From NCBI RefSeq assembly GCF_003019035.1, contig NZ_CP027447.1: DNA of 64,000 bases; one strand, 5' to 3'. The notes beneath the pieces are model-generated. The model did no database searches and was not told where the DNA came from. It worked only from the letters and a program-made list of their open reading frames with translations. The DNA is from Escherichia coli (GTDB lineage: Bacteria; Pseudomonadota; Gammaproteobacteria; Enterobacterales; Enterobacteriaceae). Shown piece by piece: positions 3,935 to 63,880 of this stretch; the stretch's first letter is position 1; every line of letters starts with the position of its first letter. Position numbers and translations under genes: made by a program.

Positions 3935-4007
3935 ATTGCCAAAGTAAAACAGTGTAAAAGGTATGTAACAGACCATTGACTGACTGAATGGTCTGTCATA
4001 CTTTGTT

Positions 4008-4217: not shown

Positions 4218-5183
4218 ATGAATACTGTCGGCACGCCGTTGCTATGGGGCGGATTCGCTGTTGTTGTCACCATTATGCTGGCTATCGACCTGTTGTTGCA
4301 GGGGCGTCGTGGGGCACATGCCATGACCATGAAACAGGCTGCGGCCTGGTCGCTGGTCTGGGTGACGCTGTCGTTACTGTTTAACGCCGCTTTCTGGTGG
4401 TATCTGGTGCAAACCGAAGGTCGCGCCGTTGCCGATCCACAGGCACTGGCCTTCCTCACCGGTTATCTGATTGAGAAATCGCTGGCGGTCGATAACGTCT
4501 TTGTCTGGCTGATGTTGTTCAGCTATTTCTCTGTTCCGGCGGCATTACAACGTCGCGTGCTGGTGTATGGCGTGCTCGGGGCGATTGTTCTGCGTACCAT
4601 CATGATCTTCACTGGTAGCTGGCTGATTTCACAGTTCGACTGGATCTTGTATATCTTCGGTGCCTTCCTGCTGTTTACCGGCGTGAAGATGGCGCTCGCC
4701 CATGAAGATGAATCAGGCATTGGCGACAAGCCGCTGGTGCGCTGGCTACGCGGTCATTTACGCATGACCGACACCATCGACAACGAGCATTTCTTTGTGC
4801 GTAAGAATGGTTTGTTGTATGCCACGCCGCTGATGCTGGTGCTGATTCTGGTGGAGTTGAGCGACGTGATTTTCGCCGTGGATAGTATTCCGGCTATCTT
4901 CGCCGTGACCACCGATCCGTTTATTGTGCTGACCTCAAACCTGTTTGCGATCCTCGGCCTGCGTGCGATGTATTTCCTGCTGGCAGGTGTGGCAGAGCGT
5001 TTCTCGATGCTCAAATATGGTCTGGCGGTGATTCTGGTGTTTATCGGTATCAAGATGCTGATTGTCGACTTCTACCATATTCCGATCGCCGTCTCGCTGG
5101 GCGTGGTGTTTGGCATTCTGGTGATGACGTTTATTATCAACGCCTGGGTGAATTATCGGCATGATAAGCAGCGGGTTGGATGA
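4218..5183 (+). CDS. alx: TerC-family inner membrane protein Alx
   Basis: 321 aa multi-pass membrane ORF; recognised sequence; synteny. Confidence 0.88.
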
Positions 5184-21276: not shown

Positions 21277-21462
21277 CTTCCTCTCTGGCCGGAGAAATTC
21301 CGGCCTTATCCCTCAAATTTTTTGAAAATATTTGACAGTTTTCCTTGCTAACAATCACGCTTCGCCACGTTTATGATTCTCTCCATCGACAGCAACGACG
21401 CTAATAGCGCGCCCTTGCACAAAAAAACAATCAGCAGCCTGAGCGGCGCAGTGGAGAGTATG

Positions 21463-21855
21463 ATGAAAAAATTAGAAGATGTTGGTGTACTGGTAGCGCG
21501 TATTTTAATGCCGATTCTGTTTATTACCGCAGGCTGGGGAAAAATTACTGGCTACGCGGGTACCCAACAATATATGGAAGCAATGGGCGTCCCCGGCTTT
21601 ATGCTGCCGCTGGTGATTCTGCTTGAGTTTGGTGGTGGTCTGGCAATCCTGTTCGGTTTCCTGACACGTACCACAGCCCTGTTTACTGCGGGCTTTACGC
21701 TGCTGACGGCATTTTTATTTCACAGCAACTTTGCTGAAGGCGTCAACTCGCTGATGTTCATGAAAAACCTGACTATTTCTGGCGGATTCCTGCTGCTGGC
21801 AATTACCGGTCCAGGCGCATTCAGCATCGACCGCCTGCTGAATAAAAAGTGGTAA
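21463..21855 (+). CDS. yqjF: DoxX-family inner membrane protein YqjF
   Basis: ORF 21373-21855 trimmed to MKKLEDVGVLVARILMP... (130 aa). Confidence 0.8.
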   Translation: MKKLEDVGVLVARILMPILFITAGWGKITGYAGTQQYMEAMGVPGFMLPLVILLEFGGGLAILFGFLTRTTALFTAGFTLLTAFLFHSNFAEGVNSLMFMKNLTISGGFLLLAITGPGAFSIDRLLNKKW

Positions 21856-21894
21856 GCACGCGCTATACTTAACAATAAAAAACGAGGAGGAACA

Positions 21895-22060
21895 CTCCTC
21901 GTTTCAGATTGTTGACAAAGTGCGCGTTGTTCATGCCGGATGCGGCGTGAACGCCTTATCCGGCCTACAAAAACATGCAAATTCAATACATTGCAGAAAC
22001 CTCGTAGGCCTGATAAGCATAGCGCATCAGGCAGTTTTGCGTTTGCCATCAGTCTCAAAC
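21895..22060. repeat. REP/BIME module flanked by short hairpins
   Basis: gccggatgcggcgtgaacgccttatccggcctac ... gtaggcctgataagcatagcgcatcaggca; flanking hairpins cgaggaggaacactcctcg and cgaggagaaacgctcctcg. Confidence 0.7.
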
Positions 22061-22102
22061 GAGGAGAAACGCTCCTCGTTTTTGCTATTGGAGGAGAGAA
22101 AA

Positions 22103-23089
22103 ATGGGTCAACTGATTGACGGCGTCTGGCATGACACCTGGTACGATACCAAATCCACCGGCGGTAAATTTCAACGTTCAGCTTCCGCATTTCGTAACTG
22201 GCTCACTGCCGATGGCGCGCCAGGCCCCACTGGCAAAGGCGGTTTTATCGCAGAGAAAGATCGTTATCATCTCTATGTTTCACTCGCCTGCCCGTGGGCG
22301 CACCGCACGCTGATCATGCGTAAACTCAAAGGACTGGAACCGTTTATTTCCGTTTCCGTAGTGAACCCGCTGATGCTGGAAAACGGCTGGACCTTTGATG
22401 ACAGTTTTCCGGGAGCAACCGGAGACACGCTCTATCAACATGAATTTCTGTATCAGCTTTATCTCCACGCCGATCCACACTACAGCGGACGAGTTACTGT
22501 TCCCGTACTGTGGGACAAAAAGAACCACACCATCGTCAGCAACGAATCAGCAGAAATCATCCGCATGTTCAATACCGCGTTTGATGCGCTGGGTGCGAAA
22601 GCGGGAGATTACTACCCACCAGCTCTGCAACCGAAAATTGACGAACTTAACGGCTGGATTTACGACACCGTTAACAATGGCGTGTATAAAGCCGGTTTTG
22701 CCACCAGCCAGCAAGCCTACGACGAGGCGGTGGCGAAAGTGTTTGAATCGCTGGCGCGACTGGAACAGATTTTAGGTCAGCACCGTTACCTGACCGGCAA
22801 CCAGCTAACCGAAGCCGATATTCGCCTGTGGACCACGCTGGTGCGTTTTGATCCAGTGTATGTGACCCACTTCAAGTGTGATAAGCACCGCATCAGCGAT
22901 TACCTGAATCTGTATGGCTTCCTGCGCGATATCTACCAGATGCCGGGAATTGCCGAAACAGTCAATTTCGATCACATCCGTAATCATTACTTCCGCAGCC
23001 ATAAGACCATCAACCCTACGGGGATTATTTCAATTGGTCCGTGGCAGGATCTCGATGAACCGCATGGACGAGATGTTCGCTTCGGTTAA
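22103..23089 (+). CDS. yqjG: glutathionyl-hydroquinone reductase YqjG (Xi-class GST)
   Basis: ORF 21920-23089 trimmed to MGQLIDGVWHDTWYD... (328 aa); the long upstream extension overlaps the REP module so was rejected; CPWAHR motif. Confidence 0.85.
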   Translation: MGQLIDGVWHDTWYDTKSTGGKFQRSASAFRNWLTADGAPGPTGKGGFIAEKDRYHLYVSLACPWAHRTLIMRKLKGLEPFISVSVVNPLMLENGWTFDDSFPGATGDTLYQHEFLYQLYLHADPHYSGRVTVPVLWDKKNHTIVSNESAEIIRMFNTAFDALGAKAGDYYPPALQPKIDELNGWIYDTVNNGVYKAGFATSQQAYDEAVAKVFESLARLEQILGQHRYLTGNQLTEADIRLWTTLVRFDPVYVTHFKCDKHRISDYLNLYGFLRDIYQMPGIAETVNFDHIRNHYFRSHKTINPTGIISIGPWQDLDEPHGRDVRFG

Positions 23090-23124
23090 AAAAAGGCACC
23101 TTACGAGGTGCCTCTGATAATTAG

Positions 23125-23255
23125 CTAAGTGCGTGTTGTTCATGTCGGATGCGGCGTAAACGCCTTATCAAACCTACAAAACATTTATATTCAATATGTT
23201 GCAATGACCGCGCAGGCCAGATAAGCGTAGCGCATCTGGCAATTTTGCGCTTGCC
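23125..23255. repeat. REP/BIME module (second copy of the module upstream of yqjG)
   Basis: gttgttcatgtcggatgcggcgtaaacgccttatcaaacctacaaaacatttatattcaatatgttgcaatg ... ggccagataagcgtagcgcatctggca, near-identical in organisation to 21895-22060. Confidence 0.65.
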
Positions 23256-23371
23256 CCTATCCTTCACAGCGCCTTATTAATTCATAGAGATAATATTTAC
23301 TGCCATTTCATTCACGTCTATTCTTAATTTGCTGCTTTAAAAACAAGTGATTGAGCAAAATTGAGGCAAAA

Positions 23372-23737
23372 ATGGACTGGTATCTGAAAGTACTAAAAAA
23401 TTATGTCGGTTTCCGGGGTCGTGCGCGGCGCAAAGAGTACTGGATGTTTATTCTGGTCAACATCATCTTTACGTTCGTGCTGGGGCTACTGGATAAAATG
23501 TTAGGCTGGCAACGTGCCGGTGGCGAAGGCATCCTGACGACAATCTACGGTATTCTGGTGTTTTTACCATGGTGGGCAGTTCAGTTCCGCCGCCTGCACG
23601 ACACCGACCGCTCGGCGTGGTGGGCACTGCTGTTCTTAATCCCGTTTATCGGCTGGCTTATTATCATCGTCTTTAACTGTCAGGCGGGTACGCCAGGCGA
23701 AAACCGCTTTGGACCAGATCCGAAACTGGAACAGTAA
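23372..23737 (+). CDS. yhaH: DUF805-family inner membrane protein (YhaH/YhaI family)
   Basis: ORF 23351-23737 trimmed to MDWYLKVLKNYVGF... (121 aa); DUF805-like hydrophobic architecture; assignment to yhaH rather than its paralog yhaI is tentative. Confidence 0.7.
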   Translation: MDWYLKVLKNYVGFRGRARRKEYWMFILVNIIFTFVLGLLDKMLGWQRAGGEGILTTIYGILVFLPWWAVQFRRLHDTDRSAWWALLFLIPFIGWLIIIVFNCQAGTPGENRFGPDPKLEQ

Positions 23738-23773
23738 TAATAATTAAGCACCTTGTAAAAGGTGCTTAATCGA

Positions 23774-24670
23774 TTATTTTCCGCTAAAAAGTTTGGGAAT
23801 TTCCCGCAGACACCAGGATTTCGCTTCCCCCATACTGTCACGACGCCAGGCCATAATAATATCGATCTCGCTGGTCGATTCCGGGCTGACGACACGCAAC
23901 CGCCCTTCCGCAATATCTTTTTCGACCATCGGATACGGCATCGTCGCCACGCCAAGCCCCGCCAGTAATGCCTGACGTTTATCTTCAATCGTGCTCACCG
24001 TTAAGCGCGGCTGTTTGTCCAGCAGCTGTACGGTCAACACCGGGCGCTCACGAGCGGTATCCGCCACCGCAATTCCACGATATTTCACGCGCGTCACTTC
24101 AGATAACGGTTCCGGCTCCTGATGAATCGGGTGATCAGGCGCGGCAACATAGACGTTCATTAAGGTATAGAGTTTGCGCGAGTTGATCTCCGACGAGGAG
24201 CGAAAATGCATATCCGGCGCGATAACAATATCCGCCCGCCCCTGCTCCAGCCGTTCCCACGCCCCTGCCAGCACTTCGGTGATGATTGCCAGTTGGGTAT
24301 TGGCTTTTACCGCCAGTTTGTCGATTAACGGGAAAAAGGCAGGTGTCGGTACCAGCGCTTCGGTCACAATGGTGAGATGCGTTTCCCAACCGCGCGCGAG
24401 AGCTTCCGCATCGGTAGTCAGTTTATCTGCGGCTTCCAGCAAAACGCGCCCTCGCTCCAGCAACATCCTCCCGACATTGGTGAATTTGGTGCGATGGCCC
24501 GAGCGGTCAAACAGCACCACATCCAGCTCTTCTTCCAATTTTTGCATGGTGTAGCTAAGTGCGGAAGGCACGCGTCCCAGCTCATCCGCCGCCGCCGCAA
24601 AACTGCCCCGGCGATCGATCGCATCCATAACCCGTAGTGCTTCCAGCGTTAATGCCCTTTCTTTGGCCAT
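23774..24670 (-). CDS. yhaJ: LysR-family transcriptional regulator YhaJ
   Basis: 298 aa; N-terminal helix-turn-helix (LTLEALRVMDAIDRRGSFAAAADELGRVPSALSYTMQKLEEEL); divergent from yhaK. Confidence 0.85.
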   Translation of the reverse strand: MAKERALTLEALRVMDAIDRRGSFAAAADELGRVPSALSYTMQKLEEELDVVLFDRSGHRTKFTNVGRMLLERGRVLLEAADKLTTDAEALARGWETHLTIVTEALVPTPAFFPLIDKLAVKANTQLAIITEVLAGAWERLEQGRADIVIAPDMHFRSSSEINSRKLYTLMNVYVAAPDHPIHQEPEPLSEVTRVKYRGIAVADTARERPVLTVQLLDKQPRLTVSTIEDKRQALLAGLGVATMPYPMVEKDIAEGRLRVVSPESTSEIDIIMAWRRDSMGEAKSWCLREIPKLFSGK

Positions 24671-25498: not shown

Positions 25499-25663
25499 AT
25501 GAGTAAAAAATCGGCCAAAAAGCGTCAGCCAGTGAAGCCCGTGGTGGCGAAAGAACCTTCTCGCACCGCCAAAAATTTTGGCTATGAAGAGATGTTGAGC
25601 GAGCTGGAAGCCATCGTCGCGGATGCTGAAACGCGTTTAGCCGAGGATGAAGCTACCGCGTAA
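25499..25663 (+). CDS. yhaL: small protein YhaL (54 aa)
   Basis: Short ORF below the track cutoff: MSKKSAKKRQPVKPVVAKEPSRTAKNFGYEEMLSELEAIVADAETRLAEDEATA; three in-frame ATGs at 25493-25501, start ambiguous. Confidence 0.6.
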   Translation: MSKKSAKKRQPVKPVVAKEPSRTAKNFGYEEMLSELEAIVADAETRLAEDEATA

Positions 25664-25669
25664 AGACAA

Positions 25670-25704
25670 GTGCCGGATGTGGCGTAAACGCCTTATCCGG
25701 CACG
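25670..25704. repeat. REP element
   Basis: gccggatgtggcgtaaacgccttatccggca. Confidence 0.65.
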
Positions 25705-25722
25705 ATACCCAAAACCTGGCGT

Positions 25723-63789: not shown

Positions 63790-63880
63790 ATGCCTGATGC
63801 GACGCTTGCAGCGTCTTATCAGGCCTACAACGATGCAAACCGTAGGTCGGATAAGGCGTTTACGCCGCATCCGACATGTT
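63790..63880. repeat. REP/BIME pair
   Basis: gcctgatgcgacgcttgcagcgtcttatcaggcctac and gtaggtcggataaggcgtttacgccgcatccgacatg. Confidence 0.7.

Follow-up and report, generated by a model that had tools for sequence, protein, structure and literature searches.

The gene yqjG of Escherichia coli lies between yqjF and yhaH, and this group is followed by yhaJ on the opposite strand. We studied it in a stretch of 64,000 nucleotides (RefSeq assembly GCF_003019035.1, contig NZ_CP027447.1), called the window in what follows, which is 100% identical to E. coli strain SCU-301 over the 2.5 kb around yqjG. On each side of the gene lies a composite module made of a repetitive extragenic palindrome (REP), a spacer and an inverted REP, and a hairpin adjoins each module; both points had been noticed in the original prediction, whose module boundaries we corrected to 21905-22056 and 23114-23255 (Table 1). 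By their sequence, both modules are bacterial interspersed mosaic elements (BIMEs) of the class BIME-1. We propose, with a probability of roughly three in four, that they come from two separate insertions, each at the 3' foot of the terminator hairpin of the upstream gene, and that the footprint left by such an insertion is a second copy of the whole hairpin.

Modules and hairpins around yqjG

The upstream module is abutted exactly at both its ends by the two copies of a 25-nt direct repeat (21880-21904 and 22057-22081), identical at 23 of 25 positions; the sequence thus repeated is a hairpin with a 10-bp stem and a 5-nt loop. The original prediction had spoken of hairpins of related sequence beside the modules: this is true of the upstream pair and not of the third hairpin (23094-23113), the sequence of which is unrelated. 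In K-12 and in Eco-15 this place is 177 nt shorter and holds a single hairpin, directly upstream of the ribosome-binding site of yqjG. The hairpin is also single in Citrobacter, Salmonella, Klebsiella, Enterobacter and Escherichia sp. MOD1-EC7003, and the spacer between yqjF and yqjG measures 60-79 nt in 58 of 80 Enterobacteriaceae species. Since the empty alleles and the outgroups carry one hairpin, the occupied allele equals the empty allele plus a 152-nt element plus a second whole terminator stem-loop. From the right hairpin copy to the start codon of yqjG, the sequence is the same as in the empty allele. We read the upstream hairpin pair as a target duplication of the yqjF terminator.

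Table 1. Coordinates of the genes, elements and hairpins between yqjF and yhaH in the window
Feature	Coordinates	Strand	Basis or remark
yqjF (DoxX family), coding sequence	21463..21855	+	Reading frame ends at 21855; RefSeq 393 nt in Eco-15, K-12 J53 and MG1655
Left copy of yqjF terminator hairpin, AAACGAGGAGGAACACTCCTCGTTT (contains cgaggaggaacactcctcg)	21880..21904	.	Direct-repeat family D4
Upstream BIME-1, 152 nt, CAGATTG...CAGTCTC, strain-polymorphic insertion	21905..22056	+	Absent from K-12 and Eco-15
Upstream Y-type REP, inverted REP orientation, ends CTAC	21935..21968	+	Sequence reading; inverted repeat I10
Upstream L linker, 35 nt, IHF-like core ATTCAATACATTG at 21981-21993	21969..22003	+	12/13 match to WATCAANNNNTTR
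Upstream Z1-type REP, REP orientation, begins GTAG	22004..22032	+	Sequence reading; inverted repeat I7
Right copy of yqjF terminator hairpin with T-run, AAACGAGGAGAAACGCTCCTCGTTTTT (contains cgaggagaaacgctcctcg; repeat 22057-22081)	22057..22083	+	D4; terminator scan
yqjG (glutathionyl-hydroquinone reductase), 328 aa	22103..23089	+	Start ATG 22103; RefSeq 987 nt; sole accepted translation frame
yqjG terminator-like hairpin, AGGCACCTTACGAGGTGCCT (contains aggcaccttacgaggtgcct)	23094..23113	.	Sequence reading
Downstream BIME-1, ~142 nt, right terminus eroded or lost in this strain	23114..23255	+	Alignment to upstream module
Downstream Y REP	23144..23177	+	Sequence reading
Downstream L linker, 34 nt	23178..23211	+	Sequence reading
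Downstream Z1 REP	23212..23240	+	Sequence reading
18-nt segment of uncertain origin, from BIME-1 to resumed outgroup homology (TTATTAATTCA at 23274)	23256..23273	.	Outgroup comparison
yhaH (DUF805 inner-membrane protein), downstream neighbour	23372..23737	+	Reading frame and RefSeq

The two copies of the yqjF hairpin differ in what surrounds them. A terminator scan called the left copy (21879-21905) on the minus strand only, because it kept the A-run, and the right copy on the plus strand only, because it kept the T-run; the right copy with its T-run is the only predicted plus-strand terminator-like site between yqjF and yqjG. An RNA covering 21870-22100 can also adopt one very stable structure (-96.5 kcal/mol, z -9.5), in which the hairpin copies are paired together. 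The stem of this terminator (CGAGGAG / CTCCTCG; window 22060-22098), conserved across Enterobacteriaceae, resembles a Shine-Dalgarno sequence and its complement, and lies close upstream of the Shine-Dalgarno sequence of yqjG, GGAGGAGAG; its 3' arm could offer an alternative pairing with the ribosome-binding site of yqjG. The same spacer has been colonised repeatedly: Superficieibacter (L071, L077) and Enterobacter sp. ENT03 (L048) carry there REP pairs of their own with GTAG/CTAC tags, upstream of position 4001, without obvious retention of the ancestral hairpin.

At the downstream site, the BIME-1 stands between the hairpin of yqjG and its T-rich tail, TTATTAATT; the two are contiguous in Citrobacter, Salmonella and Klebsiella. 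The segment after the downstream BIME-1 measures 18-20 nt across Escherichia lineages, which is the length of the yqjG hairpin. Its likeness to that hairpin is weak, with p ~0.02 in E. albertii and in the strain deposited as "E. coli E69", and not significant in K-12 and in the window. The segment may descend from a second copy of this hairpin that has since decayed.

We aligned the two modules with each other. They are ~82% identical over ~144 nt, in the same orientation and 1209 nt apart, and the alignment runs in two segments with one indel between them (21904-21972 with 23113-23181, 83%; 21970-22047 with 23178-23255, 81%). The similarity extends past the REP core and includes the outer arms, as the original prediction implied. 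A local blastn search of the window found no full module besides these two, the other matches being single REPs or short REP pairs; for a 32-nt linker probe, 0 chance matches are expected. Among these other REPs are a REP pair at 273-361 and a single Y REP at 25671-25705 after a small open reading frame (ORF), none with an L linker, as well as a Z2+Y pair resembling BIME-2 at 63790-63878, also without it.

Each module is made of two opposed palindromic units, which we assign by their consensus sequences to the types Y and Z1, the naming being that of Ton-Hoang 2012. In the upstream module, the inverted repeat I7 pairs 21955-21968 with 22004-22017; in the downstream module, the initial GTAG of the Z1 unit has decayed to GCAG. 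The linkers hold a core of the type bound by the integration host factor (IHF), written ATTCAATAnnTTG, of which 12 of 13 positions match WATCAANNNNTTR; the downstream copy of this core, ATTCAATATGTTG at 23189-23201, likewise reaches 12/13. The identical 12/13 core is found in all 60 family alleles sampled, the scan pattern itself demanding this core. Both modules are single, with no tandem amplification, and extragenic, in the yqjF-yqjG and yqjG-yhaH spacers. BIME-1 have been defined as one y and one z1 unit in single copy with a long L linker that holds an IHF site, over ~140 bp (PMC3333891, PMC1187871). The modules match the BIME-1 (RIP/RIB) in having opposed Y and Z1 units, a conserved long L linker with an IHF-type core, a single copy and a size of ~140-150 bp, as well as in being extragenic, at the 3' end of a transcription unit and present or absent among strains (PMC3333891, PMC1187871). 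We found no architectural difference, and the sequence makes both modules canonical BIME-1 with a predicted IHF site. In the later terminology, BIME-1 are REPINs, which are non-autonomous elements, and the upstream copy counts as one because, as single-stranded DNA, it is predicted to fold into one long imperfect hairpin (21904-22056, -30.5 kcal/mol, z -3.8, 0 of 200 shuffles as stable) in which the two halves pair and the linker forms the loop.

In the MG1655 RefSeq annotation, there are no RIP or REP repeat_region features around yqjG, and thus no independent annotation of the downstream element. A search of Rfam returned no REP or BIME family as such; it returned ES036 (CssrF; RF02751), a small RNA (sRNA) family, on the linker at 21971-22011 (38.4 bits for a gathering score of 37.6). 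Sub-threshold matches to naRNA4 (RF02564) fall on Y REPs (21929-21965, 23138-23174 and 25658-25702), and both "sRNA" families overlap multi-copy repeat sequence. As to a sigma-70 promoter starting from the TTGACA of the left arm of the BIME-1, the promoter scan called none there.

We then asked how the two modules are related. The upstream copy occurs in 88 of 5426 complete E. coli genomes, including SMS-3-5, and the downstream copy in 5406 of them at 88-100% identity, so that the strain comparison suggested by the original prediction does reveal a difference in presence. The filled upstream alleles are 99.6-100% identical over 261 nt (best 60 of 88), and the haplotype of the window is found at 99% or more in 58 genomes only. 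Four further Escherichia lineages have the downstream copy, whole in E. albertii, E69 and E1V33 and truncated in MOD1-EC7003; Citrobacter, Salmonella and Klebsiella do not. In MOD1-EC7003 (L008 ~4985-5120), the downstream BIME-1 ends after the Y REP, and the deletion also took yhaH and joins the end of yhaJ. The downstream insertion thus appears to be an old one, common to the Escherichia lineages and fixed in E. coli, which is now decaying, and the upstream one young and restricted to a lineage.

One of the modules could have begotten the other, or the pair could be mobilised, or recombine, as a unit around yqjG; their common orientation, their short distance, their ~82% identity and the fact that they are the sole two full modules in 64 kb would fit this. 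We hold it to be very improbable. The upstream copy is nearer to the BIME-1 between fepA and entD, its best match in genomes which lack the upstream module (92.9-93.5% identity over 100% of 153 nt), and it has a locus-specific target duplication of its own. The two copies have the unequal frequencies given above, and yqjG keeps its position between yqjF and yhaH across Enterobacteriaceae, being syntenic in 80 species with or without the elements. The longest exact run common to both modules is 12 nt, and recombination dependent on RecA is known to need a longer identity than this; the loss of yqjG by recombination between the modules was rejected on this ground. The upstream copy being closer to the fepA-entD element (93%) than to its neighbour (82%), the extended similarity of the modules appears to be the family consensus and not a local duplication. 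Because this closeness, the frequencies and the synteny of yqjG point to separate insertions, the bracketing of yqjG looks coincidental, two separate hits on adjacent terminators with no functional or mobile unit, and the original idea of a bracketing pair that records recombination between its copies is not supported, in view of the ~82% identity, the 12-nt run and the unequal frequencies. The fepA-entD BIME-1 (K-12 BW2952, L003 1501-1653) has no flanking hairpin; it nearly fills its spacer, from 8 nt past the stop codon of fepA to 13 nt before the start codon of entD. The pattern of a terminator as target therefore does not extend to every BIME-1 site.

Two remarks concern the reading frames and the gene content. 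The 389-aa frame proposed for yqjG (21920-23089) had been suspected to be an artefact of the ORF track, and it is one, the RefSeq gene of 987 nt corresponding to 22103-23089; yqjF is likewise over-extended by the track (160 aa from the ATG at 21373, for 130 aa at 21463-21855 in RefSeq). The window has no yhaI (23737-23774), so that yhaH is followed directly by yhaJ, and Eco-15 lacks it too; in K-12 MG1655, yhaI stands between both (L004 7912-8268).

Occupied and empty sites in other lineages and at other loci

The yqjF-yqjG site is also occupied in some relatives of E. coli. In Escherichia sp. E1V33 (L006 3750-4000), the upstream BIME-1 recurs at this site, oriented as in the window and identical to its counterpart there at 148 of 152 positions. 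Shared ancestry followed by losses, a transferred patch and the repeated insertion of one master copy are all possible sources of this match. In E. albertii (L007 3748-4000), an element of equal length stands at the yqjF-yqjG hairpin, again with a copy of this hairpin on each side. An end-to-end alignment of this element with BIME-1 requires its reverse complement; its Y REP is a variant and its linker has diverged. Because its orientation is opposite, this BIME-1-like element is best read as a separate insertion. The strain "E. coli E69" (L005) carries a truncated derivative of the E. albertii type of element, without the left hairpin and the left REP. Its genes are ~93% identical to those of the window, so that it probably falls outside E. 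coli sensu stricto.

In order to see other BIME-1 loci, metagenome contigs were scanned with a linker pattern. This gave 120 loci and 84 BIME-1 copies with usable flanks, which, together with the two copies of the window, make up 29 distinct loci. At 9 of the 29, direct repeats that abut the boundaries of the element score at least 12, the maximum among 812 cross-locus control pairs being 10.5. A GC-rich hairpin abuts at least one side of the element in 20 of the 29 loci and both sides in 10, and is found in none of 58 distal control segments. At the nine clear loci, the repeat is the complete stem-loop, including the A:T extensions of the stem, with an overhang of 0-2 nt in eight; at the ninth (c14), the overhang is ambiguous owing to an A-run. 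The lengths of these repeats (18, 20, 20, 20, 23, 23-27, 22-24, 24 and 25 nt) track the size of the stem-loop. Between the repeats, the element measures 151-154 nt at eight loci and 144 nt at c14, and its termini are typically CAGATTG...CAGTCTC, with variants at some loci. The orientation of the loop tells that the flanking repeats are direct and not inverted. Since the duplicated segment is the whole palindrome to within 0-2 nt in 8 of 9 loci, the length of the duplication appears to follow the target stem-loop (18-27 nt) and not a fixed stagger.

Empty alleles of the other loci were compared with the filled ones in the same way. In five pairs in all, yqjF-yqjG included, the filled allele differs from the empty one by the element and an additional hairpin copy. 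The other four are pitA-uspB (filled in 1940 of 5426 E. coli genomes), rlmC-artJ (3192/5426), rutG-ymdF (1734/5426) and ysgA-metE (0/5426), the filled allele of which was found solely in a related Escherichia-like contig. For the most perfect duplication, of 23 nt at locus c01 (L111), we found no empty allele, and its flanks have no match in E. coli. No clean empty sites were found downstream of fruA (filled in 1194 genomes) or at katE-chbG (1931), where the other alleles are larger rearrangements.

The accessible literature on REPs, BIMEs and REPINs, a scope that leaves the primary papers of the 1990s outside, holds no description of the duplication of a whole hairpin or terminator at BIME-1 or REPIN sites. 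The elements themselves were already known in the early 1990s, and the upstream copy is an additional, strain-restricted BIME-1; a prior description of the footprint is possible.

Possible origins of the doubled hairpin

We propose tentatively, and short of an even chance, that the integration of BIME-1 (REPINs) is directed by structure: the element would enter extruded terminator palindromes in either orientation, and the whole stem-loop (18-27 nt) would be duplicated. In such a process, the terminator palindrome would be extruded as a hairpin or a cruciform, one break would be made in each strand at a foot of the stem, the element would be joined between the two breaks, and fill-in synthesis would copy the hairpin to both sides. 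The breaks would presumably be made by TnpA_REP, the REP-associated tyrosine transposase (RAYT), a nuclease of single-stranded DNA, perhaps with the help of host repair. We suggest this geometry because the duplication is bounded by base-pairing and not by a fixed distance, and because both orientations work; the breaks at the two feet, deduced from footprints, also get slightly less than even odds from us. TnpA_REP acts only on single-stranded DNA, requires a nearby REP and cuts C^T over long distances, and at both 3' termini of BIME-1 the duplicated hairpin is immediately preceded by ...TC^T(C/G).

Several points weigh against this proposal and against the reading of the hairpins as footprints in general. 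The enzyme, the intermediate and the strand polarity of the mechanism are putative, being deduced from footprints. The favoured enzyme does not predict a duplication, as HUH/Y1 transposases of the IS200/IS605 type insert without duplicating their target, and the published models of BIMEs involve single-stranded circles which integrate at targets that bear a REP. No hairpin adjoins 9 of the 29 BIME-1 loci, fepA-entD among them, and the downstream site of yqjG shows a weak trace of a second copy. The sample of 29 loci is biased towards well-conserved linkers, which are probably those of younger copies, and it includes relatives which are not E. coli. The element of E1V33 is identical at 148 of 152 positions, with the flanking genes at 90-94%, and has the several possible sources named above. 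Finally, the empty alleles of E. coli could be secondary precise losses and not sites that were never occupied.

This last point can be developed into an alternative in which the filled state of yqjF-yqjG is ancestral in E. coli, and the element was later excised precisely, between the 25-nt direct repeats, from the ~98% of genomes which now have one hairpin. Direct repeats around a palindrome favour slippage and precise excision, as with Tn10 and Tn5, the site is occupied in E. albertii and E69 too, and E1V33 has the same element in the same place and orientation. Yet the hairpin is single outside Escherichia and in MOD1-EC7003, so that the duplicating insertion happened at some time in any case; the elements of E. 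albertii and E69, in opposite orientation, belong to a different event; and the near-identity of the filled alleles, with 58 genomes at 99% or more, suits one young lineage. We consider an ancestral filled state rather unlikely.

It can also be imagined that replication or repair, and not cleavage, made the second copy: a fork or a nascent strand stalled at the hairpin would switch template to a BIME-1 located elsewhere, return upstream of its departure point and copy the hairpin again. The duplication is bounded by secondary structure and not by a fixed stagger, hairpins and quasi-palindromes are known hotspots of template switching, and transposition by HUH enzymes normally leaves no duplication. 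The route by which BIMEs disseminate has also been stated to be open (PMC8266576). Against a template switch stand the sharp, conserved termini of the element (CAGATTG...CAGTCTC) and its near-constant length at 8 of 9 unrelated loci, since sharp ends are more typical of cleavage at defined ends than of switching guided by microhomology. No microhomology is evident between the ends of the element and the hairpins, which differ, and both element 3' termini have C^T, the dinucleotide cleaved by TnpA_REP. This makes a template switch unlikely in our opinion. As for the view that the hairpins are no target duplication, being part of the mobile element or terminators selected separately, it could draw on the frequency of hairpins beside BIME-1 and on the REP doublets of P. 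fluorescens, flanked by conserved A and T runs in which a co-option for termination has been seen (PMC3337134). It is hardly credible here: the hairpin differs at each locus and matches the single hairpin of the empty allele of that locus, the repeats are direct by the orientation of their loops, and pairings of flanks across loci never reach the observed scores. The five comparisons of filled and empty alleles refute it.

Known elements and expected consequences of the insertions

What the present observations add to the BIME-1 described by Gilson, Bachellier and Hofnung, by Boccard & Prentki 1993 and by Oppenheim 1993 is the direct duplication of a hairpin at the insertion site. The modules resemble the REPINs associated with RAYTs (Bertels & Rainey 2011; Nunvar 2010; Ton-Hoang 2012; Corneloup 2021) in being REP doublets with a long hairpin and GTAG/CTAC tags, non-autonomous, vertically inherited and of very low mobility. 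They differ from the models made for REPINs, in which a circle enters a target that bears a REP or a BIME and no duplication is mentioned, whereas here we see unrelated terminator palindromes and a duplication of 18-27 nt. TnpA_REP is the closest relative of the Y1 HUH transposase of the IS200/IS605 elements (IS608, ISDra2), with which it shares the recognition of hairpins, the action on single-stranded DNA and the 5'-phosphotyrosine intermediate; the insertion of IS200/IS605 elements takes place on the 3' side of a specific tetra- or pentanucleotide and makes no duplication, while BIME-1 have a duplication sized by structure and no evident target motif. The nearest published remark that we found concerns other phyla, where Di Nocera et al. 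2013 reported dimers of GTAG or CGTC REPs "within small palindromes" in Thermomicrobium roseum, Halothiobacillus neapolitanus and Anabaena variabilis. Those REPs sit between the arms of one palindrome of repeated consensus, unlike the present case, with two full, locus-specific hairpins as direct repeats. Miniature inverted-repeat transposable elements (MITEs) are alike in being short and non-coding, with imperfect terminal inverted repeats, flanking direct repeats of the target and a long stem-loop fold; by eye, the left end of our element matches the reverse complement of its right end at ~11 of 15 positions. In MITEs, the duplication is short, fixed (2-10 bp) and set by the transposase, and the modules depart from this fixed length in that their 18-27 nt equal the target stem-loop. 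Bacterial class C group II introns are reported to insert after intrinsic terminators (Robart, Seo & Zimmerly 2007). They share the terminator stem-loop as a landmark, which keeps insertions out of genes; they are retroelements with a ribozyme and a reverse transcriptase, and are not known to duplicate the hairpin.

The doubling of the hairpin has consequences which can be deduced from the occupied allele. Both neighbours would keep a hairpin in its original context, the left copy with its T-run on the minus strand and the right copy with its T-run on the plus strand, and the right copy would also keep its spacing to the ribosome-binding site of yqjG. The 3' region of yqjF would gain a predicted IHF site and two REP stem-loops. 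Transcripts of yqjF probably do not stop at the left copy, which is weakened, but continue across the BIME-1 and terminate at the right copy, so that they would carry the two REP stem-loops. REPs have been linked to the stabilisation of upstream mRNA and to the attenuation of downstream transcription (PMC3333891), and the stabilisation proposed in the original prediction is plausible here by analogy. A palindromic element between direct repeats of 18-27 nt would be prone to precise loss, which fits the presence or absence of BIME-1 among natural isolates (PMC1187871).

That two BIME-1 lie near one gene has no special meaning; it is the insertion footprint of the young upstream copy that could matter. 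The way in which REPs, BIMEs and REPINs spread has been an open question since their discovery, and a paper of 2021 from the laboratory that studies TnpA_REP still calls their dissemination unresolved (PMC8266576). For annotation, we must note that duplicated terminators beside a BIME-1, as well as linker matches to "sRNA" families such as ES036, can pass as independent features. If the proposal is true, the doubled hairpin is a new kind of footprint; the HUH/Y1 enzymes, to one of which the movement of BIME-1 is ascribed, normally leave none. It would explain why BIME-1 are sited at the 3' ends of transcription units, why their insertion is tolerated, both neighbours retaining a hairpin, and why they are present in some strains and absent from others, through scarless loss at long direct repeats. 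The signature itself, in which a terminator is targeted, its stem is cut at both feet, the element may lie in either direction and the hairpin is doubled, would lead to predictions on the choice of targets, on the breaks and on the parts taken by TnpA_REP and by host repair.

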